This document shows positions 1,954 through 49,260 of a DNA stretch of 64,000 bases, in pieces. The number at the start of each line of letters is the position of its first letter. Positions within the stretch are counted from its first letter, which is position 1. A program made the position numbers and the translations under genes. Under the pieces are notes generated by a model. It searched no databases. It had not been told where the DNA came from and saw only the letters and a program-made list of their open reading frames with translations. Origin of the DNA: Minisyncoccota bacterium (GTDB lineage Bacteria; Patescibacteriota; Minisyncoccia; Moranbacterales; UBA1568); NCBI GenBank assembly GCA_051306005.1, contig JBPPMJ010000003.1, forward strand, positions 97,764 to 161,763, in the 5' to 3' direction.

Positions 1954-4557
1954 TTAGGATAAGAACGTGATGTGTTCTGTGAGGTCCGCAATACGTTGTT
2001 TGGTGTCATGATACTTTTGTCGTTCTTCGGCGACGACTTCTGGTTTTGCGCGATCACAGAAATGCGGATTGTTGAGTTTGGTTTCCAACTGAATCAGGTA
2101 GCGTTCTTTTTCTTGTTTTTCATGTTCAAATCGCAGACGTTCTTTGGTTTTGTCAATAATATCGGCGAGATGGAGAAATACCGGTATCGTGTTTGATCGG
2201 ATCAGAATGGAATTTTCTGGAATGCTATCACTTGTGTTGATGGTTTGAATTCGTGCCAGACGTTGAAAAATTATAGCATTGTCATAAATGAGGGATGTGT
2301 CAAGTTGTTTCAAGACACTGAGCGTCATATAGTGTACCGGATCTATATGATACAGGGCACGTGCGTTGCGGATTTTGACAATGAGATTTTTGACATGTTC
2401 AAAACGTTCTTCATCAGTGTTGTCAGTAGACAGGGAAGATGCGGACGGCCAGACGGCCATCATCAACAATCCGCTATCATTAAAGTGAAAAGTTTGGTGA
2501 ATGGCTTCGGTGACAAAAGGAATAAAGGGATGCCAAAGTCTCAAAATGGTATCCAGCACAAAACGTAGACAAGCGTCATTTTTCTCGACCTTGTGCACTT
2601 CGACATACCAGTCCGCAAAATCATTCCAGGTGAATTCTCGGAGTGTTTCGGCAGAGAGAGAAATTTGCCGGTTTTCAAGCAGACGCGTGACTTCTCGTAT
2701 CGTAGTGTCCAATCTGTGAAGTATCCAGCGGTCAGCATCTGTATTGGCGACGGATGATGGCGTAGGAAGCGTAGTGTCTGTTTGTGTACCAACGTATCGG
2801 CTGATATTCCAGAGTTTGTTGATAAAGTTGCGAAAAGATTCTATTTTATCATCAGAGAGATTAAAATCGAGACCGGGCGTGGTACCGAGAACGAGACTCA
2901 GACGTACGGCATCAGCACCGTATTGATCGATGGCACGCAATACATCGATGCCGTTGCCCTTGGATTTTGACATTTTTTTGCCATGTTTATCCCGTACTAG
3001 ACCACTGAAATAGAGTTCGCGAAAGGGGACTTGACCAGTGTTATACACACCAAACATGATCATACGTGTTGCCCAAAACAAGAGAAGATCACGACCCATC
3101 ACCATCATGTCTGTTGGATAAAAATTCTGACTTGCTGGTGTGTCCGGATATCCTAGTGTTGTATAGGGCCATTGACCTGATGAAAACCAGGTATCAAGCG
3201 TGTCTTCGTCCTGTGCCCATCCATCTCCAGCCGGTGCTTCCGTGCCACAATATACTTCTTCTGTGTTGGTATCCGTTGATTTTCGATACCAGACTGGTAT
3301 GCGGTGTCCCCACCAGAGTTGTCGTGAAATACACCAATCATGTAAATTTTCCAACCAATGTATCATTTGTTTACGCATGCTTTCAGGATGAAAGGCAAGC
3401 GTGTTCCCCTGAATAGCTTGGATAGATTTTTGTTTAAGGGAATACGAGGGTGCATCGACGTTAACGAACCATTGTTTGGAAATGAGTGGCTCAATAGACG
3501 TTTGACAACGTTCGCATGAAGCAAGGTTGATGAGGTGTGCTTCTTCTTTGATGAGAAAATCATTTTTGGTAAGAGCTTCCAAGACTTGCATACGCGCTTC
3601 ATTGATAGAGAGGCCATGAAAGACGCCACCCAGTTCGGTGATTCTAGCATCCGTACCAATTACCTGCAGTGTCTTGAGGTGGTGAGTCTGTCCAATTTCC
3701 CAATCCAGAGAATCATGTGCTGGCGTTATTTTGACCGCTCCAGTTCCAAAAGCGGGATCGATACGAGGATCAGCGATAATGGGAATCACGCGATTGACCA
3801 ATGGCAGTATCACTCTTTTGCCAATAAAGGCATGATAACGTTCATCATTCGGATGCACGGCAACGGCAGTGTCTCCGAGCAGTGTCTCCGGGCGTGTCGT
3901 GGCCACGGTCAAGACCTCGGTTGAATCTTGAAGGGGATAGCGAATAAAAAATAATTTCCCTTCAGTCTCTCGATGCACTACCTCAACGTCAGACAGGGCT
4001 GTGGCACAACGTGGACACCAATTGATGATCCGTTCTCCGTGATAGATCATACCAGCCTGATACATTTTGACGAATGTTTCTTGGACACGATGTGACACCG
4101 CGGGATCCAAAGTAAATGTTTCCCTGGACCAATCAGCGGAAAGTCCAATACGCTTTTCTTGTGAGCGCATATACTCTGCCCGATCAAGACAAAAATTATA
4201 CGTCGCTTGATAGAAGGCTTCTCGACCAAGATCGTGACGTGTGCGTCCTTGTTCCGCGTATAGTTTTTTTTCAAAAACAACCTGTGTTTGAATGCCGGCA
4301 TGGTCTTTGCCTGGCAGAAGAAGTGTTTTTTTACCACGCATCCGAGCGAAACGACCAAAGATATCCATCACGGTATATCCGCTGGCATGTCCGAGATGCA
4401 ATTCTCCATTGGCATTGGGTGGAGGTAAGATATTGGTATAATGTGTCTCGCCAGTGAGATTTTCTGGTCGAAAAAAACCACTCTCTTCCCATGTGGTGTA
4501 GAGTCGATTTTCCCAGTCTTTTGCAGTGTATGTTTTGGGGATGTGGTCTGTTTGCAT
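1954..4557 (-). CDS. valS: Valyl-tRNA synthetase
   Basis: Class I aaRS HIGH motif (PPPNANGELHLGHA), KMSKS motif (KMSKSKGN), CP1/editing region and a C-terminal coiled coil. Start chosen at MQTDHIPKTY; alternative starts at 4569 or 4593. Confidence 0.95.
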   Translation of the reverse strand: MQTDHIPKTYTAKDWENRLYTTWEESGFFRPENLTGETHYTNILPPPNANGELHLGHASGYTVMDIFGRFARMRGKKTLLLPGKDHAGIQTQVVFEKKLYAEQGRTRHDLGREAFYQATYNFCLDRAEYMRSQEKRIGLSADWSRETFTLDPAVSHRVQETFVKMYQAGMIYHGERIINWCPRCATALSDVEVVHRETEGKLFFIRYPLQDSTEVLTVATTRPETLLGDTAVAVHPNDERYHAFIGKRVILPLVNRVIPIIADPRIDPAFGTGAVKITPAHDSLDWEIGQTHHLKTLQVIGTDARITELGGVFHGLSINEARMQVLEALTKNDFLIKEEAHLINLASCERCQTSIEPLISKQWFVNVDAPSYSLKQKSIQAIQGNTLAFHPESMRKQMIHWLENLHDWCISRQLWWGHRIPVWYRKSTDTNTEEVYCGTEAPAGDGWAQDEDTLDTWFSSGQWPYTTLGYPDTPASQNFYPTDMMVMGRDLLLFWATRMIMFGVYNTGQVPFRELYFSGLVRDKHGKKMSKSKGNGIDVLRAIDQYGADAVRLSLVLGTTPGLDFNLSDDKIESFRNFINKLWNISRYVGTQTDTTLPTPSSVANTDADRWILHRLDTTIREVTRLLENRQISLSAETLREFTWNDFADWYVEVHKVEKNDACLRFVLDTILRLWHPFIPFVTEAIHQTFHFNDSGLLMMAVWPSASSLSTDNTDEERFEHVKNLIVKIRNARALYHIDPVHYMTLSVLKQLDTSLIYDNAIIFQRLARIQTINTSDSIPENSILIRSNTIPVFLHLADIIDKTKERLRFEHEKQEKERYLIQLETKLNNPHFCDRAKPEVVAEERQKYHDTKQRIADLTEHITFLS

Positions 4558-10079: not shown

Positions 10080-12167
10080 CTATTCAAAGTGAATGCGTTC
10101 CTCAAATTTTTTGAGAGCTTGTTTCAGCAGTGGATGTTTGGAGAGATCAGGATCCTCGGAGAGGATGAGTTTGGCTTCTTCTCTGGCGATCTGGATGAGC
10201 TTGATATTGGTCAGATTTTCCATGGTAATATCCGGTATACCAGATTGACGTGTACCAAAAAAGGCGCCTGGACCGCGCAAGGCCAAGTCAGCTTCGGCGA
10301 TTTCAAATCCGCTGTTTGTTTTAGCAAGGATACGCAAACGTTCACTAGGGGCCGTGAGTGACACACCGGGCAAGAGGAAACAATAAGACTGATGCTCTCC
10401 TCGTCCGATTCGTCCACGAAATTGGTGTAGTTGTGCCAGTCCAAAACGTTCCGCTTCTTCAATCAGCATACAACTGGCATTGGGAACATCTATACCAACC
10501 TCCACGACAGCCGTTGCGACTAGGATAGCATATTTTTTTTCCTTGAAATCACGCATCATGGCTTCTTTTTCAGATGACTTCATCTTGCCATGGAGTAGAC
10601 CGACAGACCATTGAGGAAATACTTCCTGAGCAAGTCGTTGGTGTTCTGCAATAGCCGATTTGACCTCCGTGAAGACGGATGATTCTTCAACGAGTGGCAA
10701 GATAACAAATACTTGGCGCCCTTTGGCAAGTTCGTTTCGGACAAAGGTGTACACTTTCTCTCTCGCCGTTTCATTGTTGGCAATTTTCGTGATAATTGGT
10801 TTGCGGTTTTTTGGGAGTTCATCGAGTATTGAAATATCTAGATTGCCGAAAAATGCGAGTGTTAAAGTGCGAGGAATAGGGGTGGCTGTCATGGTGAGAA
10901 AGTGTGGTACGGTGTGTATATCTCCATCTTGACTACGCAGAGTCGCCTCTTGAAGTTTGGCGCGTTGAGCAACACCGAAGCGATGTTGTTCATCCACTAC
11001 GATGAGTGCTAAGGCATCAAACATTACATCATTCTGAAGAAGCGCATGTGTGCCGACAATGATTCTTGGAATACCGGCTTGGATGGCTTTGATGAGTGTG
11101 GGACGTTTGACCGGTTTGCCGTCAAGTAGGTGATAGTTTCCGGTAAGCAGAGCGACTTGGTGACCAGTTTTGAACAAAAACATGGAAAGACTTTGAAAAT
11201 GTTGACGTGCCAAAATTTCCGTTGGTGCGAGAATGGCGATCTGATAGCCTTGTTCTGCCGTTGCCCATATTGCCAAAGTGGCAACGATAGTTTTACCGCT
11301 ACCGACATCACCATTCAAGAGACGATTCATGGGTTTGGAGAGGCTGAGATCATGCAAGATTTCCGTACTGGCCCTATGTTGCGCCTGTGTGAGTGCAAAA
11401 GGGAGAGAGGCGATGAAGTGTGCCAGCGCTTTTTGGTTTGTCATGATGCTGGGGCTGTGAGCTATTTCAAATTGTGCTTTAATCTGTAGTGCCTTGAGTT
11501 GTACGAGAAACATTTCGTCAAAAGCAAATCGTTTACGCGCTAGGAGTGCCGACGTCTCATCTTTTGGAAAATGAACCATAGTCAGGGCGCGTTTCAGTGA
11601 AGGGAGGTGAAGGCGTTGAGTTATTTCTGCTGGTAGCGGATCGGGAATATCTGTGATTTTTTGCAAGATAGTGGTCAGTTGCCAGCGGAAAAATTTGGAA
11701 GTCAATCCGGCAGTTTCTTGATAGAGGGGTACCAAACGCCCAGTATGTGTCGCTTGTTTGGAGGAATATTCAAAGGCAGGGTTGGACATTATGGGGCCAT
11801 TGGTATCACGCGTAATTTTACCGCTGACGCGAACAATAGATCCAACCTTGAGTGTTTGTGTTACAAAACGTTGATTGAACCAGATGAGACGGAGTGTTCC
11901 AGTTGCATCTTCAATGGTCGCCTCTGTGAGCAACATTTTTTTGTGCCATGTGCGTCCGGCATTGATTTTTGTGATAGTACCGAGGATGGTACAACGGTCA
12001 CCAAGCGCGAGAGTATTGATAGGATGAATAATGGCATAATCTTCATAGCGCGTCGGCAAATGCGCCAGCATATCGCGCACGCTAAAAATACCGAGGCGCT
12101 CTAACTTACTAAGCGTTGGTTTCTTGATGGTGGATACGGCTGAAAGGGGAGTGTCGTATGTCAACAT
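10080..12167 (-). CDS. recG: ATP-dependent DNA helicase RecG
   Basis: Wedge/OB N-terminal region, Walker A GDVGSGKT, DEQHRFG motif, helicase C-terminal motifs. Confidence 0.9.
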   Translation of the reverse strand: MLTYDTPLSAVSTIKKPTLSKLERLGIFSVRDMLAHLPTRYEDYAIIHPINTLALGDRCTILGTITKINAGRTWHKKMLLTEATIEDATGTLRLIWFNQRFVTQTLKVGSIVRVSGKITRDTNGPIMSNPAFEYSSKQATHTGRLVPLYQETAGLTSKFFRWQLTTILQKITDIPDPLPAEITQRLHLPSLKRALTMVHFPKDETSALLARKRFAFDEMFLVQLKALQIKAQFEIAHSPSIMTNQKALAHFIASLPFALTQAQHRASTEILHDLSLSKPMNRLLNGDVGSGKTIVATLAIWATAEQGYQIAILAPTEILARQHFQSLSMFLFKTGHQVALLTGNYHLLDGKPVKRPTLIKAIQAGIPRIIVGTHALLQNDVMFDALALIVVDEQHRFGVAQRAKLQEATLRSQDGDIHTVPHFLTMTATPIPRTLTLAFFGNLDISILDELPKNRKPIITKIANNETAREKVYTFVRNELAKGRQVFVILPLVEESSVFTEVKSAIAEHQRLAQEVFPQWSVGLLHGKMKSSEKEAMMRDFKEKKYAILVATAVVEVGIDVPNASCMLIEEAERFGLAQLHQFRGRIGRGEHQSYCFLLPGVSLTAPSERLRILAKTNSGFEIAEADLALRGPGAFFGTRQSGIPDITMENLTNIKLIQIAREEAKLILSEDPDLSKHPLLKQALKKFEERIHFE

Positions 12168-12211
12168 ATGTATTCAGTATATCACTTTCTTGTCATAAAA
12201 AAGTGATTCGA

Positions 12212-12245
12212 TAAAAAACTCCCCAAGTCATATGAACTGAGGGAG
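12212..12245 (-). terminator. Rho-independent terminator downstream of small paralog gene A
   Basis: Minus-strand hairpin CTCCCTCAGTTCATATGACTTGGGGAG followed by TTTTTT. Confidence 0.5.
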
Positions 12246-12293
12246 CGTTTTGAAGAGATGAGATACCGATGTTTTATATCATCTTTACATGTT

Positions 12294-12626
12294 TCATAGA
12301 GCATCTTGTCGGGAAAAATGGAGAACGCGACATCGTGGAAAAATAACGACATTGCTATTGATAATTGGACGACGAGGTTGTTGTAAGAGCTCTCTGATGA
12401 GCTTGAGATTGTAATCATGCAAGAAATACGCGGGATACCTCAAGTGTATTTTTACCTCTGTTTTGAGCCAATTTTCAATTGAAATGCACGAATGATCAGC
12501 AAAAAACATCCGCATGTAGGCTTTTTCTTCCGGTGTGAGGCTGGCAGAGAGAGTGAAAATAAAGCAAGTTTCTTGAACATTCCAATGAACAGCAGAAACT
12601 TTGTTTTGAAACCTGATGATATCCAT
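12294..12626 (-). CDS. Small hypothetical protein, paralog A of a tandem pair
   Basis: MDIIRFQNKVSAVHWNV...LTPEEKAYMRMFFADH... aligns with MNILTLQNKVQKIYWVY...LTEEEQTYLHTCADDN... of the neighbouring gene at roughly 30-35% identity by eye. Confidence 0.5.
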   Translation of the reverse strand: MDIIRFQNKVSAVHWNVQETCFIFTLSASLTPEEKAYMRMFFADHSCISIENWLKTEVKIHLRYPAYFLHDYNLKLIRELLQQPRRPIINSNVVIFPRCRVLHFSRQDAL

Positions 12627-12752
12627 TGTTTTCTCCTTGTGTATCACATGATACATTTTGTATGATACGATAACATTGACAAGGTGCCTATCATATTGTA
12701 AAAAAACTGATTTTTATTATACACCAATATTCTCAAAAAGTCAATATATTAT

Positions 12753-12787
12753 AAAAAAAACTCCCGAAGTCACGTTGGACCTGGGAG
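12753..12787 (-). terminator. Rho-independent terminator downstream of small paralog gene B
   Basis: Minus-strand hairpin CTCCCAGGTCCAACGTGACTTCGGGAG followed by TTTTTTTT. Same architecture as the terminator at 12212-12245. Confidence 0.5.
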
Positions 12788-12807
12788 TGGTAGAGTTTAT
12801 TATTCTT

Positions 12808-13140
12808 TTATTGGTATGTGTCTCGCTTTGGTGAGCGAGACTGTGAATGAGGACGTATTGATACAATGTTGCTGTCGCAAATGTCATACTCTCTCCCCAA
12901 TATTTTTTGAACAATCGCTTTTTGATAGCGTGGCAAATATGATGTCTGGCTGAGGAGATGGACACGCGCCTCTGTATTGTGCGCATAGTGTATGAAAATA
13001 TGCGGGTTGTCATCAGCACAAGTGTGCAGATACGTCTGTTCTTCCTCAGTCAAGTCCGCGGATAATTTTAGCGCCAAAAATGATCTTGGATAGACCCAGT
13101 AAATTTTCTGCACTTTGTTTTGCAATGTGAGAATGTTCAT
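12808..13140 (-). CDS. Small hypothetical protein, paralog B of a tandem pair
   Basis: See paralog A. The two genes are arranged head-to-tail on the minus strand, each with its own terminator. Confidence 0.5.
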   Translation of the reverse strand: MNILTLQNKVQKIYWVYPRSFLALKLSADLTEEEQTYLHTCADDNPHIFIHYAHNTEARVHLLSQTSYLPRYQKAIVQKILGREYDICDSNIVSIRPHSQSRSPKRDTYQ

Positions 13141-13332
13141 GGTCAGCTCCTTGTAATGAAGTGATTCTTACGATGTCAGACCAATAAAATGATTGTTAAG
13201 GTGTTCTTGATGCTAGTAGACTCCATAATGCAATAAAAGTCAAGGAATTGTTTGATTGACGTTTGGTGAGAAGTGTTTTTGATTGTATACTATGAAGAGT
13301 GAGTTTTTTTTGATTTGATAATTTTTCAGAAT

Positions 13333-14187
13333 ATGTCCGAATCACACTCTCCCGTTTGCTATTTCAATGGCACCTTTTTACCACTCAACCAGATACGATT
13401 GCACCCGTATGATCTGGGATTTTTGCGTGGTTATTCGGTGTTTGACGTGATGCCTGTTATTAATGGGAAACCATTTCTGTTTACGGAACATTGGCAACGT
13501 TTGGCACATTCGGCGGACATGTTGTCACTTGCGTTACCAGTCAATGCGACACAGTGCTTTGACATTATGAAAGACCTGATTCGACGGAATGCGGATTTAC
13601 CATGTCAGGCCATGACTTTACGTACAGTATTATCTGGTGGGATTGCAGAAGACGCTTATTCCGCTGTGGCCGGCGATGAAACATTTGTGATTTTGGTGGA
13701 AGCGTTGCATCCGTTGATGGACAACGTTTATACTACGGGTGTAAAATTGCGTCCATTGGAATATGCACGGCAATTTCCTTTGGCCAAGACTGTCAATCAT
13801 ATTGCCTCATTGCGTACTTTGCAAGAAACTCGAGCGATGGGGGCTTTGGAGACCGTTTACGTTCAAAATGGCCTGGTATTGGAAGCATCAACCAGTAACG
13901 TTGCTATCATACACGCAGGAAGCGTTATTGCGCCGAAAGAAGGAGTGTTGGGCGGTGTAACCCTTGGGAAAGTACTGGAACTTGCCAATGAAATGGACAT
14001 ACCGATAGAACGTCGCCCGATGACGTTAGCAGAGACGTTGTCAGCAGACGAAGTGTTTCTGACTGCCAGTAGTAAACGCGTGGTACCCGTCACCTCTATT
14101 GGTGATCATGTCATTGCCAATGGACTTCCCGGACCGATCACACAACGTCTCATGACCGCATTGAATACTTTTATACAACGCTATTGA
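13333..14187 (+). CDS. Class IV PLP-dependent aminotransferase (branched-chain amino acid or D-amino acid aminotransferase family)
   Basis: N-terminal ...YFNGTFLPLNQIRLHPYDLGFLRGYSVFDVMPV... and overall length and pattern match the IlvE/Dat/PabC fold-type IV. Start at MSESHSP; 13315 also possible. Confidence 0.8.
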   Translation: MSESHSPVCYFNGTFLPLNQIRLHPYDLGFLRGYSVFDVMPVINGKPFLFTEHWQRLAHSADMLSLALPVNATQCFDIMKDLIRRNADLPCQAMTLRTVLSGGIAEDAYSAVAGDETFVILVEALHPLMDNVYTTGVKLRPLEYARQFPLAKTVNHIASLRTLQETRAMGALETVYVQNGLVLEASTSNVAIIHAGSVIAPKEGVLGGVTLGKVLELANEMDIPIERRPMTLAETLSADEVFLTASSKRVVPVTSIGDHVIANGLPGPITQRLMTALNTFIQRY

Positions 14188-14539
14188 TGCGAAACATCAA
14201 GGGATATTATCTTGGAGCAACCAGAAGAACAAAAAGAACATTCTTCTCAATTTGTGAAACAATTTCCTCGAGAAAGCTTTTCAAGAGAACGTGATTCAGT
14301 GGCTACTGCAATTCGTAAAAGACGGCGTGAATGATGTATGGTGTGCCGAACAAGATTCGCGCAATGCATAAAAATAAGTTTGATTATAGCATGGCAAGCA
14401 GTAATGCACCTGCCGACTCTTCCACGGTACACCTTGTTTTTGAATATGTAATGGATAGTACGTACGGCTCTGAACGAAGAAACGAGATCTTTGCCGTTCA
14501 GTTCGTTGATGGTGTCTTTATTGTACCAAGTTAGAACCT

Positions 14540-14930
14540 ATTTCCAAAACAAATGATGTCGCGCACGCGGAGCGCATGGCGGCTCTGACCAAAATCGTAC
14601 GCTCGGAGAAAGTCCCACGCATTGGCGAGTACGCCAGCAACCCCGAAAGAAAAAACACTCCTTGCATTTCTGATTTGGCGGGGGTGAAATTTCTTTTGAA
14701 AAAGGAAAGGATGTTTTTCTTTCGGGGTTCTGCCTGTAAAGATATTCGGGCAGTGCGTGGGGCTTCAATGCGGACTCGGCAAAGCGAAACTATTTTTGCG
14801 GAAGGAAAAGGATTTTGCTTTGCCTCGGCTCTTTTTTGCGAGGATTTGGTATCCGCCGCGCAGGAGGGGTCTGGGGAGGAATGCGGGCGGGTTTCCTTTC
14901 AGTTTTTTTTAATGTTTTCTATGTGAAATA
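14540..14930. repeat. Mosaic intergenic repeat element, copy A (full-length, ~390 bp)
   Basis: Four modules. (1) 14565-14660 is shared with 48990-49200. (2) A long hairpin GCAACCCCGAAAGAAAAA...TTTTTCTTTCGGGGTTCTGC. (3) A core GGATTTTGCTTTGCCTCGGCTCTTTTTTGCGAGGATTTGGTATCCGCCGCGCAGGAGG... shared with 18040-18200 in reverse complement. (4) A tail TTTTTTAATGTTTTCTATGTGAAATAAAAA shared in reverse complement with 16716-16745. Confidence 0.6.
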
Positions 14931-14969
14931 AAAAAAGTCTCTCATGCATAACACATGAGAGACCATTGA

Positions 14970-15563
14970 TTACAACTTGATTTCGTTCGTCGTGACCACA
15001 GAACCAATCTTCGAGAAAAATCGAAGAGACTTTTCATGATCCTCGATTGTGGCCGCAGCACAAGCATCTGACACTACTGTGACTATAAAGTCACGGTCAT
15101 GGGCATCTCGAGCCGCCGCCTCAACTGCAAGATCGGTTGCGACTCCTGCAATGAAGACGTGGGATACGCCCATATTACGCAACATAGTTGCAAGAGGAGT
15201 ATCATAGAATGCACTTACCCGTGATTTCTGAATAGTTAAATCAGAATCAATGTAGTTGACTGAAGAGTGGAATTGAGTTGACCACTCACCAATCTTGAGG
15301 ATACCGAAATCTTTCGCTTTTCCAAAAACAGGCGATGATTTTGGTTGATTGGCGTATGAATGGTCGAATCCAAGTCGGACGAAAACAACTGGACATCCCT
15401 TTTCTCTAAAGATGCCAATCGCTTTGTTGAGGTGGTCAAAGGTAGCGGCTTTTTCAATGAATGCCACATATCCTTTCCCTGCGAGTTTTCCTTTTTGGTC
15501 AACGATTTCGTTGACGAAATCGATGACAAGAAGTGCGCTGTTCATGTTTTTTATCTCCTTCAT
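14970..15563 (-). CDS. Isochorismatase-family cysteine hydrolase (nicotinamidase/YcaC-like)
   Basis: ALLVIDFVNE..., the conserved Lys region, and VTVVSDACAA containing the catalytic Cys are typical of isochorismatase-like hydrolases. Confidence 0.8.
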   Translation of the reverse strand: MKEIKNMNSALLVIDFVNEIVDQKGKLAGKGYVAFIEKAATFDHLNKAIGIFREKGCPVVFVRLGFDHSYANQPKSSPVFGKAKDFGILKIGEWSTQFHSSVNYIDSDLTIQKSRVSAFYDTPLATMLRNMGVSHVFIAGVATDLAVEAAARDAHDRDFIVTVVSDACAAATIEDHEKSLRFFSKIGSVVTTNEIKL

Positions 15564-16531
15564 GGTTTGTTGTTGAGGCACGTAATCGGACGTGCCTGTA
15601 TGATGATTATATCACAACCAGACACAATAAGCTCTATGTCTTGCGGTGATCCGAAATGTTCCTCTATATCCATACCGAGACGAACTATTTTTTGAATTAG
15701 TTCGTTTGATGTAGCATAGCGAACCCTTTCATTCTGTTGTACTTCCACTTCCACTTTGTTTGTGCGAGTGAAATCCTCAAGTGGTACATACGAAATATGC
15801 CATTTTTTTGATCCAAGTTCTGAAGAAATGACCCTGCCTGATTTTCGATCACATAAGTACATGTCTCCTTGAACTTGTCCTGAGACAATGGCTTCGCATG
15901 CCCCATATGCAATTTCCATGCCAAGTATGACATCCGAGTTTTCAATGGGATCTCGGGTCATAACCACACCGCACGAATCTGCTCGACACATTTCTTGAAC
16001 GAGCACACTCATGCGACTTTGTAGATACGAGTGGTCATTCTTTACATCAAACTGCGCAAGACATCGCTCACTAAAGAGTGATGCAAAGCAATGAAGAATT
16101 GCTTCAGGAACCTTGTGATAAGGAACCATTAGAAACGATTCATATTGACCCGCAAGCGAAGCTTCTTTTGAATCTTCGATCAGCATTGTACCTTTTATGA
16201 CTGGGGCACCAGAAGAACGAATGGCGAAAAATTCTGCACTTGGAATATGTAAACCAAGAGCAGAAAAGATTTCATCTTCGTTTTCCAATGTTCGTCGAAC
16301 AATTTCCTCGCTCATACGTGAAGAAATTTCACTGTATGATTTTCCCTCTGAAAGGATTACGCCAAACAAAGGTAGCAATGACTCAATATGCTGTTTATAA
16401 ACAGCATATGTTATGCCAAAACCGCGAGGTGTACGGAGGTTAAGTTCTGCGAGACTCGCAAGACTTTTTACTTTGTTTCCGAGTTCGGGAGAACCTGTTG
16501 CAAGGTCTCCCATTGGGAATATGTGACTCAT
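15560..16531 (-). CDS. PEP/pyruvate-binding (ATP-grasp, PPDK_N-like) domain protein
   Basis: GNKVKSLASLAEL resembles the GGKxANLxEL motif of the N-terminal nucleotide-binding domain of PEP synthase, pyruvate phosphate dikinase and rifampin phosphotransferase. About 320 aa, the typical domain size. There is no downstream TIM-barrel domain. Confidence 0.6.
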   Translation of the reverse strand: MSHIFPMGDLATGSPELGNKVKSLASLAELNLRTPRGFGITYAVYKQHIESLLPLFGVILSEGKSYSEISSRMSEEIVRRTLENEDEIFSALGLHIPSAEFFAIRSSGAPVIKGTMLIEDSKEASLAGQYESFLMVPYHKVPEAILHCFASLFSERCLAQFDVKNDHSYLQSRMSVLVQEMCRADSCGVVMTRDPIENSDVILGMEIAYGACEAIVSGQVQGDMYLCDRKSGRVISSELGSKKWHISYVPLEDFTRTNKVEVEVQQNERVRYATSNELIQKIVRLGMDIEEHFGSPQDIELIVSGCDIIIIQARPITCLNNKP

Positions 16532-16707
16532 GATTGGTGTTCCTCCTTTTCTGTACCGTGCGGAATGATGCTGATTGACTTTGCCGATGTATCCACAACG
16601 AGAATATCGTCATCTTTCACTTCGAACATAATCCTTTCAACACCAACCATGCACGGTATATTGTTTTCACGTGAGAAAATGGCTGCATGTGAATAGTAAC
16701 CGCCCAA
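16528..16707 (-). CDS. PEP-utilising enzyme mobile (phospho-His) domain fragment, possibly a truncated gene
   Basis: Translation NLGGYYSHAAIFSRENNIPCMVGVERI... matches the GGxxSHAAIxAREfGIPcVVG signature around the catalytic His. No ATG; TTG is the only in-frame start candidate. Its stop TGA overlaps the ATG of the PPDK_N gene (ATGA). The upstream side abuts a repeat-element fragment. Confidence 0.4.
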   Translation of the reverse strand: MGGYYSHAAIFSRENNIPCMVGVERIMFEVKDDDILVVDTSAKSISIIPHGTEKEEHQS

Positions 16708-16711
16708 ATTC

Positions 16712-16765
16712 TTTTATTTTTATTTCACATAGAAAACATTAAAAAATTTGGCGGCTAGGCTTGAT
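16712..16765. repeat. Repeat-family fragment (tail module plus GGCGGCTAGGC module)
   Basis: TTTATTTCACATAGAAAACATTAAAAAA is the reverse complement of 14897-14927. TTTGGCGGCTAGGCT matches the reverse complement of 18049-18063. Confidence 0.55.
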
Positions 16766-16841
16766 TAAACCTTAAATTAATACTAGAGTGGTAATCAGTC
16801 GAAGATGTTCTTTGACAACCTAAAACAGCAAAGAGATAAAC

Positions 16842-17051
16842 ATGGCGGATCAAAACACAACTCAACACTCTCTCAAAAAAGACAAGTATGTGAGTACCCG
16901 CGGTGGTAATTCACATTTTCTTGATCTTTTTTGTAGCAAGTGCAACCAGCTTTTGCCCTCTACCAAAAAGACGGGCATGGCTGGTTGCTTCGGATGTACC
17001 TCGATCGAATCTTTGCGCCACAAGAGCTCGCGCTTTTGCAGTCAAAGGTAA
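16842..17051 (+). CDS. Small zinc-ribbon protein (two CxxC pairs, CSKC...CFGC)
   Basis: 69 aa ORF with ATG start and two CxxC motifs 14 residues apart. Confidence 0.35.
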   Translation: MADQNTTQHSLKKDKYVSTRGGNSHFLDLFCSKCNQLLPSTKKTGMAGCFGCTSIESLRHKSSRFCSQR

Positions 17052-17065
17052 GTAGTAAAGCCGAT

Positions 17066-17374
17066 ATGCCGAATCTCAAATGTCCGAAATGCGGCGCACT
17101 CATCGGCACACCGATGGTCTACGAAAAAGAGTCGTCTATGAAAAATGGTGTCAATTTCAGGACAAGTGTTTTTCAATTTCGTCCCTATCATGGCACCGAG
17201 CTGTACCACGATATGATCCTGAAAGGAAGGATTATTGATGAGGTTGTGTACAGCGAGAATTTGTCAACAAACATAGGGAGAAAGCAGTTTAACTTCACGA
17301 GTGGTAATTTCTCCGAAGTATCTGATGAGATTCTTCGTGGATTCATTACCAAAACTAATGGAATAAACCGATGA
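17066..17374 (+). CDS. Hypothetical protein with an N-terminal CxxC (KCPKCG)
   Basis: ORF in the other frame. The track calls a GTG start at 16940, overlapping the previous gene by ~110 nt. The first ATG gives a non-overlapping 102 aa protein. Confidence 0.35.
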   Translation: MPNLKCPKCGALIGTPMVYEKESSMKNGVNFRTSVFQFRPYHGTELYHDMILKGRIIDEVVYSENLSTNIGRKQFNFTSGNFSEVSDEILRGFITKTNGINR

Positions 17375-17904
17375 AAAACACAAATGTAATGTGGGGCGGT
17401 CTTTCTGCGAAAAAGGCAAATGATGCGGAGAATCTTGCACCTCTCCACATAGACACAAATACCGGTAAGTTGGTAGCAGAAATTGAGGCGCAGTGCCGCC
17501 ATATCAACTTTTACAAAACAAACCTTGTAAAGTTTCCGCCATTGGATTCCAAGGGGAAGTTGAGATATCCGACACTTAAAGAGTGCGCATTGTGTTATCC
17601 CGAGTTGCAGGTTGAGCTTCAGTTAGTTAATCCTCGTGTTGTCCTATTGCTTGGCAACAAAACGGCAACCTTCGTTTTCCACCAGCTTGGGTTTCAGATG
17701 CCAAAATTATCTTATACATACCAATCCTTTGAGTATGAAAAAAGGTGGTATGTGCCCATCCATCACCCGTCGTACATCATGGTGTACAAGCGAAAGGAGA
17801 AGGATCGATATATCAAGGCAGTGAAAACTGTTATTGAACAACTTGCGGAGTGCACGCCAAGAATTGGAGACGCTAGAATCTTCCAGACAGATCGGAATCT
17901 ATGA
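17371..17904 (+). CDS. Uracil-DNA glycosylase superfamily protein (family 4/5-like)
   Basis: UDG-fold pattern: ...ECALCYPEL..., VVLLLGNKTA (motif preceding the glycosylase core) and a C-terminal HPSYIMVYKRKEK (HPS motif). Confidence 0.55.
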   Translation: MKNTNVMWGGLSAKKANDAENLAPLHIDTNTGKLVAEIEAQCRHINFYKTNLVKFPPLDSKGKLRYPTLKECALCYPELQVELQLVNPRVVLLLGNKTATFVFHQLGFQMPKLSYTYQSFEYEKRWYVPIHHPSYIMVYKRKEKDRYIKAVKTVIEQLAECTPRIGDARIFQTDRNL

Positions 17905-18039
17905 TTTCGAGATTGTCTCGGAAGAAAATCAGGTGTCGAAAATCGCTCAGATGATCTACGCCAGTTATCTCCAACAGCTCTTTCCACAACAGCCATAACC
18001 TCGCAGCTTCATTTCAGAAATCTCTGAATGGACTGCGAG

Positions 18040-18200
18040 GTTTCTTTTTTATAGCCTAGCCGCCAAAAATCCGCCGCGCATTCCTCCCGTACCCTCCTGC
18101 GCGGCGGATACCAAATCCTCGCAAAAAAGAGCCGAGGCAAAGTAAATCCTTTTTCTCAAACCTGCTTCTTGGCGAAAAACAGGTGTGCGCAAGCGCGCCC
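18040..18200. repeat. Mosaic intergenic repeat element, copy B (core module, inverted relative to copy A)
   Basis: The reverse complement contains GGATTTACTTTGCCTCGGCTCTTTTTTGCGAGGATTTGGTATCCGCCGCGCAGGAGG..GGAGGAATGCGCGGCGG, nearly identical to 14800-14885. Confidence 0.6.
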
Positions 18201-18237
18201 CACTATTTGGCTTTGAAAAAGCCGTTGAGTTCGTTGA

Positions 18238-18312
18238 TGGTGCTCTCAGCAGGAATCGAACCTGCATTGCTTCCTTCGGAGGGAAATGTCCTATCCATTG
18301 AACGATGAGAGC
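18238..18312 (-). tRNA. tRNA-Arg (anticodon CCG), CCA encoded
   Basis: Reverse complement GCTCTCATCGTTCAATGGATAGGACATTTCCCTCCGAAGGAAGCAATGCAGGTTCGATTCCTGCTGAGAGCACCA. Anticodon loop CTCCGAA. Confidence 0.8.
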
Positions 18313-18419
18313 AAATATAAAAATATTGCCTTTGCCTGAGTATTGATTGGATATGTTGAACCTGAAAATAAACGTTGATTTGCCCGCAGTCAGAAAATCG
18401 ACCGTGAGTGAAAAAAAGA

Positions 18420-18495
18420 TGGTGTCCTCGGCAGGAATCGAACCTGCGACCTTCTGGACCGCAACCAGACGCTCTATCCACTGAGCTACGGGGAC
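18420..18495 (-). tRNA. tRNA-Arg (anticodon reads GCG in DNA; ACG is the usual bacterial isoacceptor), CCA encoded
   Basis: Reverse complement GTCCCCGTAGCTCAGTGGATAGAGCGTCTGGTTGCGGTCCAGAAGGTCGCAGGTTCGATTCCTGCCGAGGACACCA. Anticodon loop TTGCGGT. One acceptor-stem mismatch. Confidence 0.65.
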
Positions 18496-18512
18496 CTCTT
18501 GTTGAGCATTTT

Positions 18513-18982
18513 TTAAATATGCAGGATTTTTTCCAACGTGTCAACCAATCTGGGCTCGTGTTTTTCTTCTGGAATAAAATCGTCCAAGAGGTCTCGCAAG
18601 TGTTCAATATCTTCCGCAATGACGGGGATGTGTACATAAGGGACCAATCTGCCCTGTGTTTCTATACTGAGGATGTTTTCAAAAGGGGGGTCGCGATAAA
18701 TAAAAAATGAGGCAATATTTTCAAATGCGTAAAATTCATCGCCCGCGATAATACCTTTTTCGGTTACAAAAAATGTCAGAGTACGGTACTCGCGGAGCAT
18801 AGAAAGATAGCCAACGACACCAATCAAGATAAAGGTAATCGCCATTAGCAGACTATTTGTATAGAGCGCATAACCAATAATCATGATCAAAAGAATCGTG
18901 ACGATAGTGCGTGAACGTGGACCGAGGTAGAGAGGTTCGTGCTCCAAGGCTTGCCAGCGGAATCGGACTTCACCATATGGCA
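18513..18982 (-). CDS. Hypothetical membrane protein
   Basis: Start placed at MPYGEVRFRWQ. Two TM helices followed by a soluble domain. The ORF track extension to 19172 overlaps tRNA-Ser on the opposite strand and is unlikely to be real. Confidence 0.4.
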
Positions 18983-19174
18983 TTGAGGCACTCTGCGTAG
19001 AATGATTGGAAGAGTGAGTAGGCATAGAAACCAAACAAGAGTATACCGATACTATACCATACTCTATGTGAATAGTAGAGGTAACGAGAGTTGACGAGGG
19101 CTCTGATATTGTGGCACAGTACAGAGGATCAGGTTTGAGACAAATACTATGCTTCAAGAATGGCATGATCAACC

Positions 19175-19261
19175 GGAGGCGTGTGTGAGTGGTTGAAACA
19201 GACAGTCTTGAAAACTGTTATACCCGGAAGGGTATCGAAGGTTCGAATCCTTCCGCCTCCG
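19175..19261 (+). tRNA. tRNA-Ser (anticodon TGA), long variable arm
   Basis: GGAGGCGTGTGTGAGTGGTTGAAACAGACAGTCTTGAAAACTGTTATACCCGGAAGGGTATCGAAGGTTCGAATCCTTCCGCCTCCG. Anticodon loop CTTGAAA. An AT-rich putative island begins immediately 3' of it. Confidence 0.85.
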
Positions 19262-19362
19262 CAGCTAGCTTGAAGTATCGAGAGACCCGAGAACCCTCTG
19301 TTTAAGCCAAAGAATAAATGGCAAAAAATAGAGAGTACACGGGACTCGAACTCAAGCACAAT

Positions 19363-20048: not shown

Positions 20049-20291
20049 ATGTTTGACGTAGGATTTATTAACTAATTTTTTAAGGTACAAAAAAGGTCCC
20101 CCAACCAAAGCTATAACTCTTTCGAGCTACCCAATGTCCTTTCGGAACACTGACCTACGTCAATAAGTGCCGGTCGGGAGACCGTCTTTATGACGTAGGT
20201 GACTTTATTGCGCCATGCTCACATCGCTATGAGTTTAGGCTGGTTGTATCTGCATTATAGATTTTTAAAGGGCTTTTATCAACTGAATGCT

Positions 20292-21668
20292 TTATTTTAG
20301 GGTGGTTTCATACTCTTTTAGACTTAATGTTTTATTCTTTTTAATCACTAGGCGACTTTTTAGACTGCCTAGAAGTTCTCTCTTTTCAGCCATTTTTCCT
20401 TCTTTGAGAATGTATTTTGCATAGGCACGGATATCAAAAGGGGATTCCTCAGAAGTCTCTACTTTGCCGCTTAGCCGAAGCACTGATTTTTGAAAATGGT
20501 TATAGCGGTTAACCTCATCTTCAAATTGCCTTTTGAGACCAATTTCATTTATATCTATCTTATCGATCAGCTTTGTCATTTCCTCGATTAACAATTCTTC
20601 TCTCAGGTAGCCAAGTTTGCAACTATGATCTCGAGAGCGAGTACATCCGTAGTAAATATAAGTAGCGGTATTTCCATTCTTAAGTTTCTTGTACTTTTCA
20701 TCTGCGGTCACACCTGATCCGCAGAGACCACAAGTTATGAGCCGAGTGAAAGCAAACTCTTTTCCTTCTCTAATAATTCTTGCTCGTTTTAGTTGTTCTT
20801 GTACCAGATCAAAAAGTTCTTTAGAAATAAGGGGCTCATGTTTTCCTTGATACCAGTTACCGCTATTTCTAGGATATTCAAAGACTCCATAGTAAAAACT
20901 CGTTTGGAGTAAACGGTAGAGGTTACTTAGCGACATATGTTTATTACTCTTAGCTTTGAAGTTGAGATCAAACTTGAGCCAGTGGTATACTTTTCGTCCT
21001 GACCAATTTTCGTAAGCTACTTTTTCAAATATTTGTTTTACAATTGCAGATCGCATAGGGTCTATTTCTACGTGACTTTTACGGTCTGGCGTAATAGCGT
21101 TCAGATAACCAGTGGGAGCCATGGTTGGCCACAGTCCCATTTCACACCTCATTCGAAGTCCTCGTTTCACATTGATGCCTCGATTATCATTTTCTAGTTT
21201 TGCTTGCGATCCTAAGATCATCAGGAGGAATTTCTCGTTAGGGGAGTTGCTAAAGCTCTGGCCGTAGGTACGAATTTCATGCAGGAGCTGTTGATCCATG
21301 AGGTCTACTAGAGAACCTAAGTCACCAGCGTTTCTACTAAGTCTGTCTGGCGCCCATGTCAGAATAGCGTTGAAGCGACCTAAGCGAATATCATTTATAA
21401 GTTCGTTGTAAACTGGTCGTCCGCCTGAATTTTTAGCCGAGTGGCTTTCTCTCCGAATTTCTACAATCTCCAATCCATCCCTCTCGGCTATTTGAAGCAT
21501 CTCCTTAATCTGAGAGTCGATAGAAAGGACTTGCCGTTCCTCGGATTCCGTCGATTTTCGAGCGTAGAGGCAGTACTTCATCTGTAGGGGAGCTTCTATA
21601 TTCTTTGCCTCTGAAGCTGCCCGTAATTGCGTTATATGGTCGTTCATATCCCAATGAATGACAGACAT
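20292..21668 (-). CDS. Large serine recombinase (resolvase domain + recombinase domain + zinc ribbon)
   Basis: N-terminal resolvase catalytic region YARKSTESEERQVLSIDSQ (aligns with YxRVST...S-x2-Q; the catalytic Ser is in KST). A recombinase domain and a C-terminal Cys cluster (CGLCGS...C) follow. 458 aa. Confidence 0.85.
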   Translation of the reverse strand: MSVIHWDMNDHITQLRAASEAKNIEAPLQMKYCLYARKSTESEERQVLSIDSQIKEMLQIAERDGLEIVEIRRESHSAKNSGGRPVYNELINDIRLGRFNAILTWAPDRLSRNAGDLGSLVDLMDQQLLHEIRTYGQSFSNSPNEKFLLMILGSQAKLENDNRGINVKRGLRMRCEMGLWPTMAPTGYLNAITPDRKSHVEIDPMRSAIVKQIFEKVAYENWSGRKVYHWLKFDLNFKAKSNKHMSLSNLYRLLQTSFYYGVFEYPRNSGNWYQGKHEPLISKELFDLVQEQLKRARIIREGKEFAFTRLITCGLCGSGVTADEKYKKLKNGNTATYIYYGCTRSRDHSCKLGYLREELLIEEMTKLIDKIDINEIGLKRQFEDEVNRYNHFQKSVLRLSGKVETSEESPFDIRAYAKYILKEGKMAEKRELLGSLKSRLVIKKNKTLSLKEYETTLK

Positions 21669-21700: not shown

Positions 21701-23158
21701 CTAAAATCCCTCTGGTTTCTCAGCAAAACCTCGGGAGCCTCTCTTATTGAGTTGTATGGCTTTCCCAGCCAATATGGAAAAAGCGTCTGCAAGATCATCG
21801 TGCTTTTCCTTTCCAAACCCCACGAGATTTTCTAGAAGATCCTCACAACCACTTTCTGGAAATTGAATTTTACCAGAAGTTACTAAATTACTTACAGACA
21901 TTAAACGGGCTCGTTTATCAGAAAATACTTGTACAGTTTCTGTACGATAGTAGTCTCTGTTTAATTGTTCCGCCGCAACACGTTGATAGCCAACGTCTTC
22001 AATGAGGATAATAACTTTTCCGTAGTGTTGAGTGGAATCGTGAAGCATTTTTATTGCAGAGAGTGTGTCTTCAAAATTTAATCTTTTCTCTATTGGATTC
22101 GGAAGTATGTATATTCTAAAGTCTTCTCCATACCCAGTAACTAATCCTACTACAAGAGCAGTAAAGTCAGCTGTTGATTTTTGGGAAATAGCTAAGTCAG
22201 TTCCAATGAGGACTCTTTTCCAGTGTTTGTCTGGTAGATTTTTATAATATTTAATTTGGTCATAGCTGAAGATTTGGTCGTCGTCAGGAATGATACGGAG
22301 GAGATATTCTCTTTGCCAAGCAATTTCGTTTCCAACTTTTTTTCTTTCTTTCTCAATCTCTGATTCATCGAGGTACTTCCCCTTCCAAAGAATCTCATCA
22401 TTTTCATTTAGTAGTGGATATTTCTTAAAAACTCCTTCACCAGATCCTTCTTCAATATCACTCTTTAAATGCATAAGGAGGGAATCTTCGTGAAGAAGAT
22501 TTCCGACTATCACCAGCTTGGTATTTTTATCACCAAGAGGAATAATTTCTCCTTTAAGCCAGTTGTATGTTTTTTGCCTCCCTTCTTTAGTTTTAGCTGA
22601 AGCCATATCTTCCACATCGTCACCGATAATCAGATCGGGACGGTGTTGTCCGTGACGCATCCCACGAATACTTTGTTCTGAAGAAGCAGCTGTAATACGG
22701 GCATTCATATTGGAAAAAACGAGTGAAGTTGATCCCCATTCGTCACTTTCTTCTTGAAATGGACCGAGGTCATTTTTAAGTAAGGTATTATTCTCGAGCT
22801 CTCTTTTTAAGTTAGTCATATGTTGCTTTGCCTGAGTTCTTGTTTGGCAAAGGATAACAACAAACTTCTTTTGCTGTTTACCAAGGATTGCCCAGATAGG
22901 ATAGGAAGTGGTAATGATAGTGGATTTACCAGATCCACGGAAAGCTACGATATAGAGGTTTTTGATAGTCTCGTCTTCCGTAAGGTTGAAAATTTCCCTT
23001 TGAAACTGAGCAGTTTCATACTTTACATAGTGAGCAAAGTAAAGGTGAAAAAACATAAAATGACTTTGCTGAGTAATAGCAATACGTACAGTTCTATCGG
23101 CAATCATTCTATCTATTACCTCATCAGGTATTTGTTTACTTATTTTTGACATCTCCAT
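21701..23158 (-). CDS. Phage terminase large subunit
   Basis: Walker A AFRGSGKST, ATPase coupling motifs, and a C-terminal RNase-H-like nuclease region (IGTDLAISQKSTADFTALVV...). Tightly followed (33 nt) by the recombinase gene. Confidence 0.75.
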   Translation of the reverse strand: MEMSKISKQIPDEVIDRMIADRTVRIAITQQSHFMFFHLYFAHYVKYETAQFQREIFNLTEDETIKNLYIVAFRGSGKSTIITTSYPIWAILGKQQKKFVVILCQTRTQAKQHMTNLKRELENNTLLKNDLGPFQEESDEWGSTSLVFSNMNARITAASSEQSIRGMRHGQHRPDLIIGDDVEDMASAKTKEGRQKTYNWLKGEIIPLGDKNTKLVIVGNLLHEDSLLMHLKSDIEEGSGEGVFKKYPLLNENDEILWKGKYLDESEIEKERKKVGNEIAWQREYLLRIIPDDDQIFSYDQIKYYKNLPDKHWKRVLIGTDLAISQKSTADFTALVVGLVTGYGEDFRIYILPNPIEKRLNFEDTLSAIKMLHDSTQHYGKVIILIEDVGYQRVAAEQLNRDYYRTETVQVFSDKRARLMSVSNLVTSGKIQFPESGCEDLLENLVGFGKEKHDDLADAFSILAGKAIQLNKRGSRGFAEKPEGF

Positions 23159-48959: not shown

Positions 48960-49260
48960 CAAGGTCTAGACCCGACTAGCCCGCCAAATCGTACTTTCAA
49001 TTTCGCTGAATGTAAAACTTGGAGATGTTTTTTTGACGAAGTTTGAATGCATTTCGGACAAAATCCGCAGGATTTTGACGACTAATCGCACGTGCGGAGC
49101 GCGTGGTGGCTCGAAACTGCCTCGTACGCTCGTATCGTCCCGCCACTGCCTCGCAGAGCCTCGGCAACCCCGAAAGAAAGACACCCTTTCCACTTTCAAG
49201 AAAAATTTCACCCCCGTCAATTTTCATTTTTTACGAAATCGGAATATTGTGCCTCTGTGT
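48960..49260. repeat. Mosaic intergenic repeat element, copy C (module 1)
   Basis: CGCACGTGCGGAGCGCGTGGTGGCTC...TCGTACGCTCG...GCAACCCCGAAAGAAAG... parallels 14565-14660. GAAAAATTTCACCCCCG is the inverted form of GGCGGGGGTGAAATTTC in copy A. Confidence 0.5.

Follow-up and report, generated by a model that had tools for sequence, protein, structure and literature searches.

Introduction

Small-molecule dikinases in which the phospho-carrying His swivel domain and the ATP-grasp domain lie on separate polypeptides are known from HpeHI, CreHI and PpsAB (phenylphosphate synthase), and their His phosphorelay has been demonstrated (PMC12167813, PMC7500099). In these systems the His is pyrophosphorylated from ATP, the γ-phosphate is released and the β-phosphate is passed to a phenolic substrate (PMC12167813). 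The catalytic His is positioned by a T/SxxGGxxxH loop (PMC12167813), and the phospho-site of PpsA is His569 (PMC7500099). Here we analyse a 64-kb stretch of Minisyncoccota DNA (the window, to which all coordinates refer), in which three open reading frames (ORFs) carrying part of a His swivel protein, a PPDK_N ATP-grasp protein and an isochorismatase-family protein lie between the arms of a perfect 30-nt inverted repeat. An initial annotation, made from the letters of the window, had read the first two as a split and domain-permuted phosphoenolpyruvate (PEP)-utilising enzyme. We find that the three ORFs are probably a truncated remnant of a conserved four-gene operon, comprising its last two genes and the 3’ half of the one before them, in decaying accessory DNA.

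The two-component dikinases resemble this operon in having a separate PPDK_N polypeptide of ~320–340 aa, a T/SxxGGxxxH swivel on another polypeptide, no PEP/pyruvate TIM barrel, and sequences like those of rifampin phosphotransferase (RPH). In HpeHI, CreHI and PpsAB, however, the swivel is fused to a rifampin-binding-like substrate domain of ~450 aa, whereas in the operon it is a free-standing protein of 111–124 aa, preceded by an unrelated all-helical protein of ~326 aa. The operon also always includes an isochorismatase-fold gene, and its context is not aromatic catabolism.

Results

A conserved four-gene operon in related loci

Homologues of the 323-aa ATP-grasp protein of the window form a family of stand-alone proteins of ~320 aa. 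In 11 of 11 complete related loci their gene is the third of four: gene 1 encodes an all-helical protein of ~315–337 aa without a Pfam match, gene 2 a stand-alone PEP-utilizers His swivel protein of 111–124 aa, gene 3 the PPDK_N ATP-grasp protein, and gene 4 an isochorismatase-family protein of ~185–191 aa. These loci (L002–L004, L006–L010 and L026–L028) come from a Saccharimonadales metagenome-assembled genome (MAG; L006), Rhodococcus pyridinivorans (L008 and L009), a Flavobacteriaceae MAG (L010) and, for the remainder, metagenome contigs; L005 was excluded because a contig edge falls inside its gene 4. By gene 3, the nearest relatives of the window are L002 (87% identity) and L003–L005 (81%). 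The neighbours of the operon vary from locus to locus, and it thus appears to be a self-contained module.

Since all 11 loci show the order swivel protein then ATP-grasp protein, both the split and the order are native to the operon family. The initial annotation had treated them as an anomaly; the arrangement is instead common and intact in relatives, none of whose 11 complete loci contains the 30-mer that flanks the window genes. The longer His-domain gene that it suggested looking for does exist, as the 111–124-aa swivel proteins of these loci.

The window carries a truncated copy

As first described, exactly three ORFs lie between the repeat arms, all on the minus strand. The first (16528–16707) has 59 codons and corresponds to the final 55 residues of a His swivel protein that is 117 aa long when complete: in tblastn it aligns to residues 63–117 of the L002 and L003 swivel proteins, and it covers only positions 31–70 of the 72 in the PEP-utilizers Pfam profile. 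Its sole start candidate is the TTG already noted, with neither an ATG nor a Shine-Dalgarno sequence, and two stop codons close its reading frame at the very start of the right repeat arm. The promoter scan found no promoter upstream of it on the minus strand. The catalytic loop reads KNLGGYYSH in the window and TEEGGRYSH or TEDGGRYSH in the 116–117-aa proteins of intact relatives. The break therefore falls within the T/SxxGGxxxH motif, of which the T/S-x-x part is lost and GGYYSHAAIFSR with the catalytic His is kept; a complete His swivel domain with this motif is present in the intact relatives and not in the window copy. When the four proteins of L002 and of L003 were used as tblastn queries, genes 3 and 4 were recovered in the window at 81–91% identity, with no trace of gene 1 or of swivel residues 1–62.

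Genes 3 and 4 are intact. Gene 3 (15560–16531, minus strand) encodes a stand-alone nucleotide-binding subunit of 323 aa with a full PPDK_N domain (PF01326, 157.5 bits, profile positions 3–314 of 328), and its ATG overlaps the stop codon of the gene 2 remnant as ATGA, both as originally reported. Gene 4 (14970–15545, minus strand) encodes a YecD-like isochorismatase-fold protein of 191 aa (PF00857, 127.5 bits) that is 89–91% identical to its intact relatives. Its assignment to the isochorismatase family holds, whereas the 22-nt overlap reported between it and gene 3 arose from choosing a GTG at 15581 as the start; in relatives, as in two independent gene calls, the start is the ATG at 15545, which has a Shine-Dalgarno sequence and leaves a 14-nt spacer. 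Downstream of gene 4, the terminator scan gave a terminator-like hairpin (14936–14964, minus strand) with a 13-bp stem followed by TTTTTTTATTT. It stands just inside the left repeat arm, into which its T-tract extends, and L002–L004 have a homologous hairpin after their isochorismatase genes.

Genes 3 and 4 contain no frameshifts or stops. The ratio of non-synonymous to synonymous substitution (dN/dS) between the window and intact relatives is 0.14–0.17 for the PPDK_N gene and 0.06–0.07 for the isochorismatase gene, and between intact relatives it is 0.21 and 0.08, respectively. Judged by these undamaged genes and by dN/dS values like those among intact relatives, the 5’ truncation is recent, with genes 3 and 4 newly orphaned and still intact. 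The base composition of the bracketed segment does not set it apart, and exact look-ups of the 323-aa protein and of a spurious 116-aa ORF across the left junction returned nothing.

The swivel fragment is identified as a remnant by its missing Shine-Dalgarno sequence, the absence of a promoter-like site upstream and the lost T/S-x-x of its motif. With gene 1 and the first 62 carrier residues gone, and with no ATG, ribosome-binding site or promoter, the phosphorelay could not be expected to run from the window copy, which is very probably non-functional as well as recently truncated. The opposite proposal, that the locus as it stands encodes a working minimal two-protein phosphotransfer enzyme made up of the 59-aa His peptide and the ATP-grasp protein, can point to the retained GGYYSHAAIFSR motif with its His, to the preserved ATGA coupling to the ATP-grasp gene and to downstream genes that are intact with dN/dS values like those of purifying selection. 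However, half of the swivel fold is gone together with T/S-x-x, the only start is a TTG without a Shine-Dalgarno sequence and with stops immediately upstream, every complete relative has a swivel protein of 111–124 aa together with gene 1, and no acceptor-binding component is left. We regard such an enzyme as very improbable, and with it the two-component enzyme of the initial annotation; the locus is a gene remnant and not a new type of permuted enzyme. The annotation’s other option, a decaying gene, was right for the His-domain ORF, with residues 63–117 of 117 left. Annotating the window genes either as a functional PEP-utilising enzyme or as a novel domain permutation is unwarranted.

Predicted chemistry of the intact operon

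The ATP-grasp and swivel proteins score best against the RPH/PRK06241/PigC group of NCBIfam and against PDB entries 5HV6, 5FBS and 5HV1. For gene 3, the matches to 5HV6 and 5FBS have E values of about 1e-26, and NF041857 (RIF_Ptrans_rph) scores 144 bits over its N-terminal domain; 5HV6 and 5FBS are rifampin phosphotransferase (PMC12167813). The chemistry expected of RPH and of the PRK06241 and PigC-RedH “PEP synthase-like” enzymes (ATP → His-P → substrate-P + AMP + Pi) is the same as that expected of the operon. RPH-type enzymes, however, are one chain of ~860 aa in the order ATP-grasp, substrate domain and swivel, whereas the operon encodes three chains in the order helical protein, swivel and ATP-grasp. 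No homologue of the RPH central domain was detected in the operon, and no match to the rifampin-binding-like second substrate domain was found in the operon family. PEP synthase and pyruvate phosphate dikinase (PPDK) have the PPDK_N and PEP-utilizers domains in common with the operon, but none of the window ORFs has their C-terminal PEP/pyruvate-binding TIM barrel, as the initial annotation had observed, and neither has any gene of the 11 related operons. The regulatory Thr that precedes the His is replaced in the operon family (GGRYSH).

By analogy with HpeHI, CreHI and PpsAB, the intact operon appears to encode a variant of these two-component small-molecule dikinases in which the enzyme has three components, together with an accessory hydrolase-fold protein. 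In the mechanism that we propose, the gene 3 ATP-grasp subunit would bind ATP, and the stand-alone swivel protein of ~117 aa encoded by gene 2 would accept the β-phosphate on its conserved His (motif TEEGGRYSH). The swivel protein would then deliver the phosphate to a substrate held by the all-helical gene 1 protein of ~326 aa, and the Cys-less, YecD-like gene 4 protein would act on either substrate or product. The overall reaction predicted for the intact operon is the ATP-dependent phosphorylation of a small molecule via phospho-His.

For the acceptor-binding subunit, the gene 1 protein is the strongest candidate. Structure prediction returned a confident all-α model (predicted local distance difference test score 91.8), and the protein carries an invariant SETMRGWVGxRSPSGLD loop. 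No relatives were found among PDB sequences, among PDB or BFVD folds, or in the RPH-like central region. The family comprises 87 cluster representatives among 1.84 billion proteins, and among these gene 1 is stand-alone wherever it is full length. The one two-domain match, P0058, is a deletion fusion: in this 477-aa protein from a JGI contig, gene 1 is joined in frame to the C-terminal half of the ATP-grasp gene, with loss of the swivel gene. As a deletion variant of the operon in another genome, it indicates that the operon decays repeatedly. A further protein, P0087, seemed from its Pfam listing to be a permuted His-then-ATP-grasp fusion, and proved to have the normal domain order. None of the PADLOC defence models matched the four proteins, apart from weak AAA-like noise for a single gene 1 homologue, and gene 1 was found in no plasmid or phage record.

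The best PDB match of gene 4 is YecD (1J2R). The Asp and Lys of the Asp-Lys-Cys triad of isochorismatase-like cysteine hydrolases are present, and the fold is matched, but the triad is incomplete: the nucleophile position is Ala (AGVATDLAVEAA vs AGVTTEVCVQTS), with TDLAVE aligned to the TEVCVQ of a cysteine hydrolase. YecD itself has Gly at this position. With Ala in place of the nucleophilic Cys, the gene 4 protein is not a cysteine hydrolase, nor is it a nicotinamidase or a RutB-type amidase.

The matches thus expose a rare family in which the swivel of the PEP synthase/RPH superfamily is a free protein of ~117 aa, encoded between a helical protein and the ATP-grasp subunit. We tentatively suggest, at somewhat less than even odds, that the intact operon is an undescribed three-component dikinase, made up of a helical subunit of new fold, a free swivel, an ATP-grasp subunit and a Cys-less partner, which has spread horizontally among Patescibacteria, Actinomycetota and Bacteroidota. 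On the same view, the fragment found here would have been captured by the tail of an element termed X below, a widespread structured RNA-like element that lacks annotation and marks tRNA-adjacent integration hot spots in Patescibacteria. If the proposed mechanism holds, the two-component dikinases would here be taken apart one step further, giving a simple system for studying how a swivel shuttles between active sites. The presence of the operon in the reduced genomes of Patescibacteria hints at the handling of external small molecules, for example in scavenging or detoxification.

The 30-nt inverted repeat and its origin

The inverted repeat that brackets the three ORFs is real. Its left arm, TTTTTTAATGTTTTCTATGTGAAATAAAAA, lies at 14905–14934 and its reverse complement at 16717–16746, with 30 of 30 positions complementary; the coordinates first given for it were 1–8 nt off. 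Even with 3 mismatches allowed, the window contains no copy of the 30-mer beyond these two, and none would be expected by chance. The core of the 30-mer was found in none of 185,579 GTDB representative genomes, the JGI metagenomes gave one chance match, within a ureD gene, and 34 retrieved loci contained no copy with up to 5 mismatches. Within these collections, and within the 64 kb of the source genome that the window covers, no other cassette flanked by the same repeats, as the initial annotation had proposed to look for, was thus found.

Two contigs from the Logan collection, separately assembled from different sequencing runs, read through the junctions. L001 (SRR22508361) corresponds to 15276–18121 of the window and spans the right arm, which stands at the truncation point, and L034 (SRR22508341) corresponds to 14839–15743 and reads through the left junction; both are 100% identical to the window. 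This agreement across both junctions makes a mis-join in a de Bruijn graph, as the source of both the repeat and the truncation, very unlikely and the least likely of the explanations that we considered. A repeat length of 30 is indeed k−1 for assemblers run at k = 31, and the L001 and L034 contigs end 30 nt into a 51-nt repeat within element X. A graph error, however, could flip the segment and could not create two copies of the 30-mer.

The two arms differ in their relation to the operon. BLAST alignments with the intact relatives start at the break in the His gene (16704/16705), cross the terminator and extend into the left arm, ending at 14926–14929, and a T7ATTT tract after the terminator is common to the window, L003 and L004. 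Because this tract is shared and the homology of the relatives enters the arm, the 9 nt at its inner end are the tail of the operon’s own terminator. The right arm is accordingly probably a secondary, inverted copy of the 3’ flank of the operon. Two other sources for the right arm, the missing 5’ portion of the His gene and the region upstream of the promoter in L025, were considered and rejected, as the similarities were not significant (p 0.5–0.9).

Most simply, then, the repeat arose incidentally, when a rearrangement placed or flipped the fragment, and we favour a local inverted duplication over a transposon-like cassette. Inversion of a segment together with a flanking 30-nt sequence R, by a staggered break across R, would convert P1-S-R-P2 into P1-R’-S’-R-P2, which matches the observed order.

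The segment lies in the tail of a copy of element X, a conserved ~400-nt non-coding, hairpin-rich sequence of which the interrupted copy (copy A, 14494–14904, plus strand) precedes the left arm. After in silico excision of 14905–16746, the alignment of copy A with a second, uninterrupted copy, copy B, continues without a break through TTTTTGGCGGCTAGGCT of the latter, and the layout of tail, promoter and 5’ untranslated region (5’-UTR) is likewise uninterrupted in L018 and L024; the bracketed segment thus sits inside the X tail. The idea that repeat insertion had disrupted the decaying gene is in this light only loosely right, since it is the gene segment that interrupts X. Nor is the 30-mer a tail module of the neighbouring repeat, as had been supposed: it is absent from copy B and from the X copies of L012, L014, L016, L017, L018, L020 and L022–L025, and because no other X copy carries it, it is not part of X.

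Mobile insertion cassettes carry passenger genes between terminal inverted repeats of insertion sequence (IS) type, without a transposase. If the segment were one, with the 30-nt arms or a ~22-nt TG...CA core as its terminal inverted repeats and a transposase encoded elsewhere, a 1.84-kb unit would have entered the T8A6 tract of the X tail, with T8A6TTTGGCGG as the empty site. Like such cassettes, the segment has perfect 30-bp inverted ends around a discrete set of genes without a transposase, and it interrupts another, otherwise continuous element; the arms can be read as TG...CA termini with TTAA on both sides, and the site is an accessory hot spot beside a prophage. Unlike them, it belongs to no family of copies, has no clear target duplication and no cognate IS that we could find, and overlaps the terminator of its own cargo at one end. 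Neither a transposase in or near the unit nor a third copy of the arm in the window, the GTDB representatives, the JGI metagenomes or the related loci was found, and the putative TA or TTAA duplication lies in the T8/A6 tract, where it is palindromic, of low complexity and hence uninformative. That the inner 9 nt of the left arm are a native terminator tail, shared with repeat-free relatives, would be unexpected for a transposon end, and several extra steps would be needed to bring solo 30-bp ends up against half a gene. Of the proposal that the genes were mobilised as a cassette, the inverted repeat itself stands, with no further positive support, and we consider a cassette unlikely.

Still less probable is an invertible gene segment, in which the arms would serve as sites for a site-specific recombinase or for RecA, so that a flip switches the orphaned or neighbouring genes. 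The structure is formally that of an inversion product, a large serine recombinase gene (20292–21668, minus strand) lies 3.5 kb away, and 30 bp of perfect identity is near the minimum for homologous recombination. Against this, the recombinase gene adjoins a terminase gene and is most simply a prophage integrase, the 30-mer is nearly without the internal dyad symmetry typical of recombinase core sites, both junction contigs, from two runs, have the orientation of the window, and no promoter was found at either end for a flip to connect.

Several points weigh against the favoured account of a truncated remnant formed by local inverted duplication, and against the role given to gene 1. Genes 3 and 4 are free of disabling mutations, and residual function is possible; an intact second copy of the operon could also exist outside the 64-kb window. 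No pre-inversion allele was found for the staggered-break reconstruction, and the similarity of the left arm to the 3’ flank of the relatives beyond the T-tract is not significant (p about 0.1). The proposed role of gene 1 in substrate binding is suggested solely by its position in the operon and by there being no other candidate, and gene 1 shows neither fold nor profile similarity to the rifampin-binding domain.

Element X

Element X ends in a GC hairpin and a T-run. Besides copy A, the window contains copy B (18048–18237, minus strand), a partial copy with only the 3’ part that lies directly downstream of tRNA-Arg(ccg), and a copy of the 5’ hairpin (49166–49220, minus strand). Beyond the right arm, the tail of copy A continues on the plus strand (16747–16789) as TTTGGCGGCTAGGC. 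A weak promoter-like sequence (TTGATT-17-TAGAGT), recognised by eye and below the threshold of the promoter scan, comes next, in front of the following gene. The promoter-like box and a 5’-UTR (aatcagt...tctttgacaac) at 16747–16841 recur in L018 and L024 before different genes in different lineages, and X tail, promoter and leader together look like a portable module.

A 20-mer from X matched ten loci on nine contigs (L012, L014, L016–L018, L020 and L022–L025). The Patescibacteria MAGs that bear X include Azam-, Lipton- and Lloydbacteria, Parcubacteria and Saccharibacteria, with 77–93% identity over up to 400 nt; copy A is 77–85% identical over ~400 nt to the copies of Liptonbacteria, Lloydbacteria and Saccharibacteria MAGs. 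RNAalifold gave four hairpins with compensatory changes at 14 pairs, and no Rfam family covers X. The element often directly follows a tRNA gene, and several full or partial copies occur per genome. X may represent a previously unrecognised structured RNA, or else a mobile element.

Positions 14493–14514, at the start of copy A, match 18221–18242, the 3’ end and flank of tRNA-Arg(ccg), over 22 nt with 1 mismatch. This match was considered as an attachment (att) site and rejected: its orientation relative to X is wrong and its significance marginal (E 2e-4 in a small search). Next to copy B, a hairpin of ~45 nt (aacctcgcag...ctgcgaggtt, 18005–18047) follows X in four genomes, those of the window, L012, L023 and L025. 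The convergent gene that it terminates is not the same throughout: it is an ORF of the UDG region in three of the genomes (window, L023, L025) and an isochorismatase gene in L012. The latter, from Azambacteria, is 71–77% identical to the isochorismatase gene of the window, so that X and the operon family are neighbours in a second lineage.

Genomic surroundings

Between recG and a tRNA-Arg/Arg/Ser cluster, the window has ~6 kb of accessory DNA, and the segment lies within it, beside a prophage. Among named sequences, RecG is matched best by Moranbacteria (63–69% identity), which places the host in Patescibacteria. In a relative with a 72%-identical RecG, the block tRNA-Arg/tRNA-Arg/219-aa gene/tRNA-Ser lies 1.4 kb from recG, and this relative has no X, cassette or island and none of the content found at 12.2–18.2 kb of the window, which is therefore accessory DNA. 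Comparison of 10080–19262 with L035/L036, in the relative with the 72%-identical RecG, showed the same block to be inverted relative to recG, and this points to a larger rearrangement at the hot spot.

To the right of the segment lie decayed island genes (16842–17904, plus strand): a hybrid of a Zn-ribbon gene (its 5’ part) and a B12/radical-SAM gene (its 3’ end), then a UDG-family gene. The corresponding island in L025, ~95% identical on the UDG side and 85% in the Zn-ribbon part, has genes for a 150-aa Zn-ribbon protein, a 451-aa B12/radical-SAM protein and a 162-aa UDG protein. Aligned with positions 3977–5747 of L025, window positions 16842–17374 show a ~1.2-kb deletion that joins the 5’ part of the Zn-ribbon gene (a weak HNH_5 match) to the last ~75 codons of the radical-SAM gene, and from this loss the island is judged to be decaying. 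The UDG gene may in addition have lost a C-terminal extension by frameshift (ORF 17834–17998).

Farther right are tRNA-Ser (19175–19262), the Rfam LOOT RNA (20114–20241, minus strand), which lies between the tRNA and the recombinase gene, immediately downstream of the latter, and, beyond the recombinase gene, the gene for the terminase large subunit (21701–23158, minus strand). The recombinase and terminase mark a prophage that starts right of tRNA-Ser.

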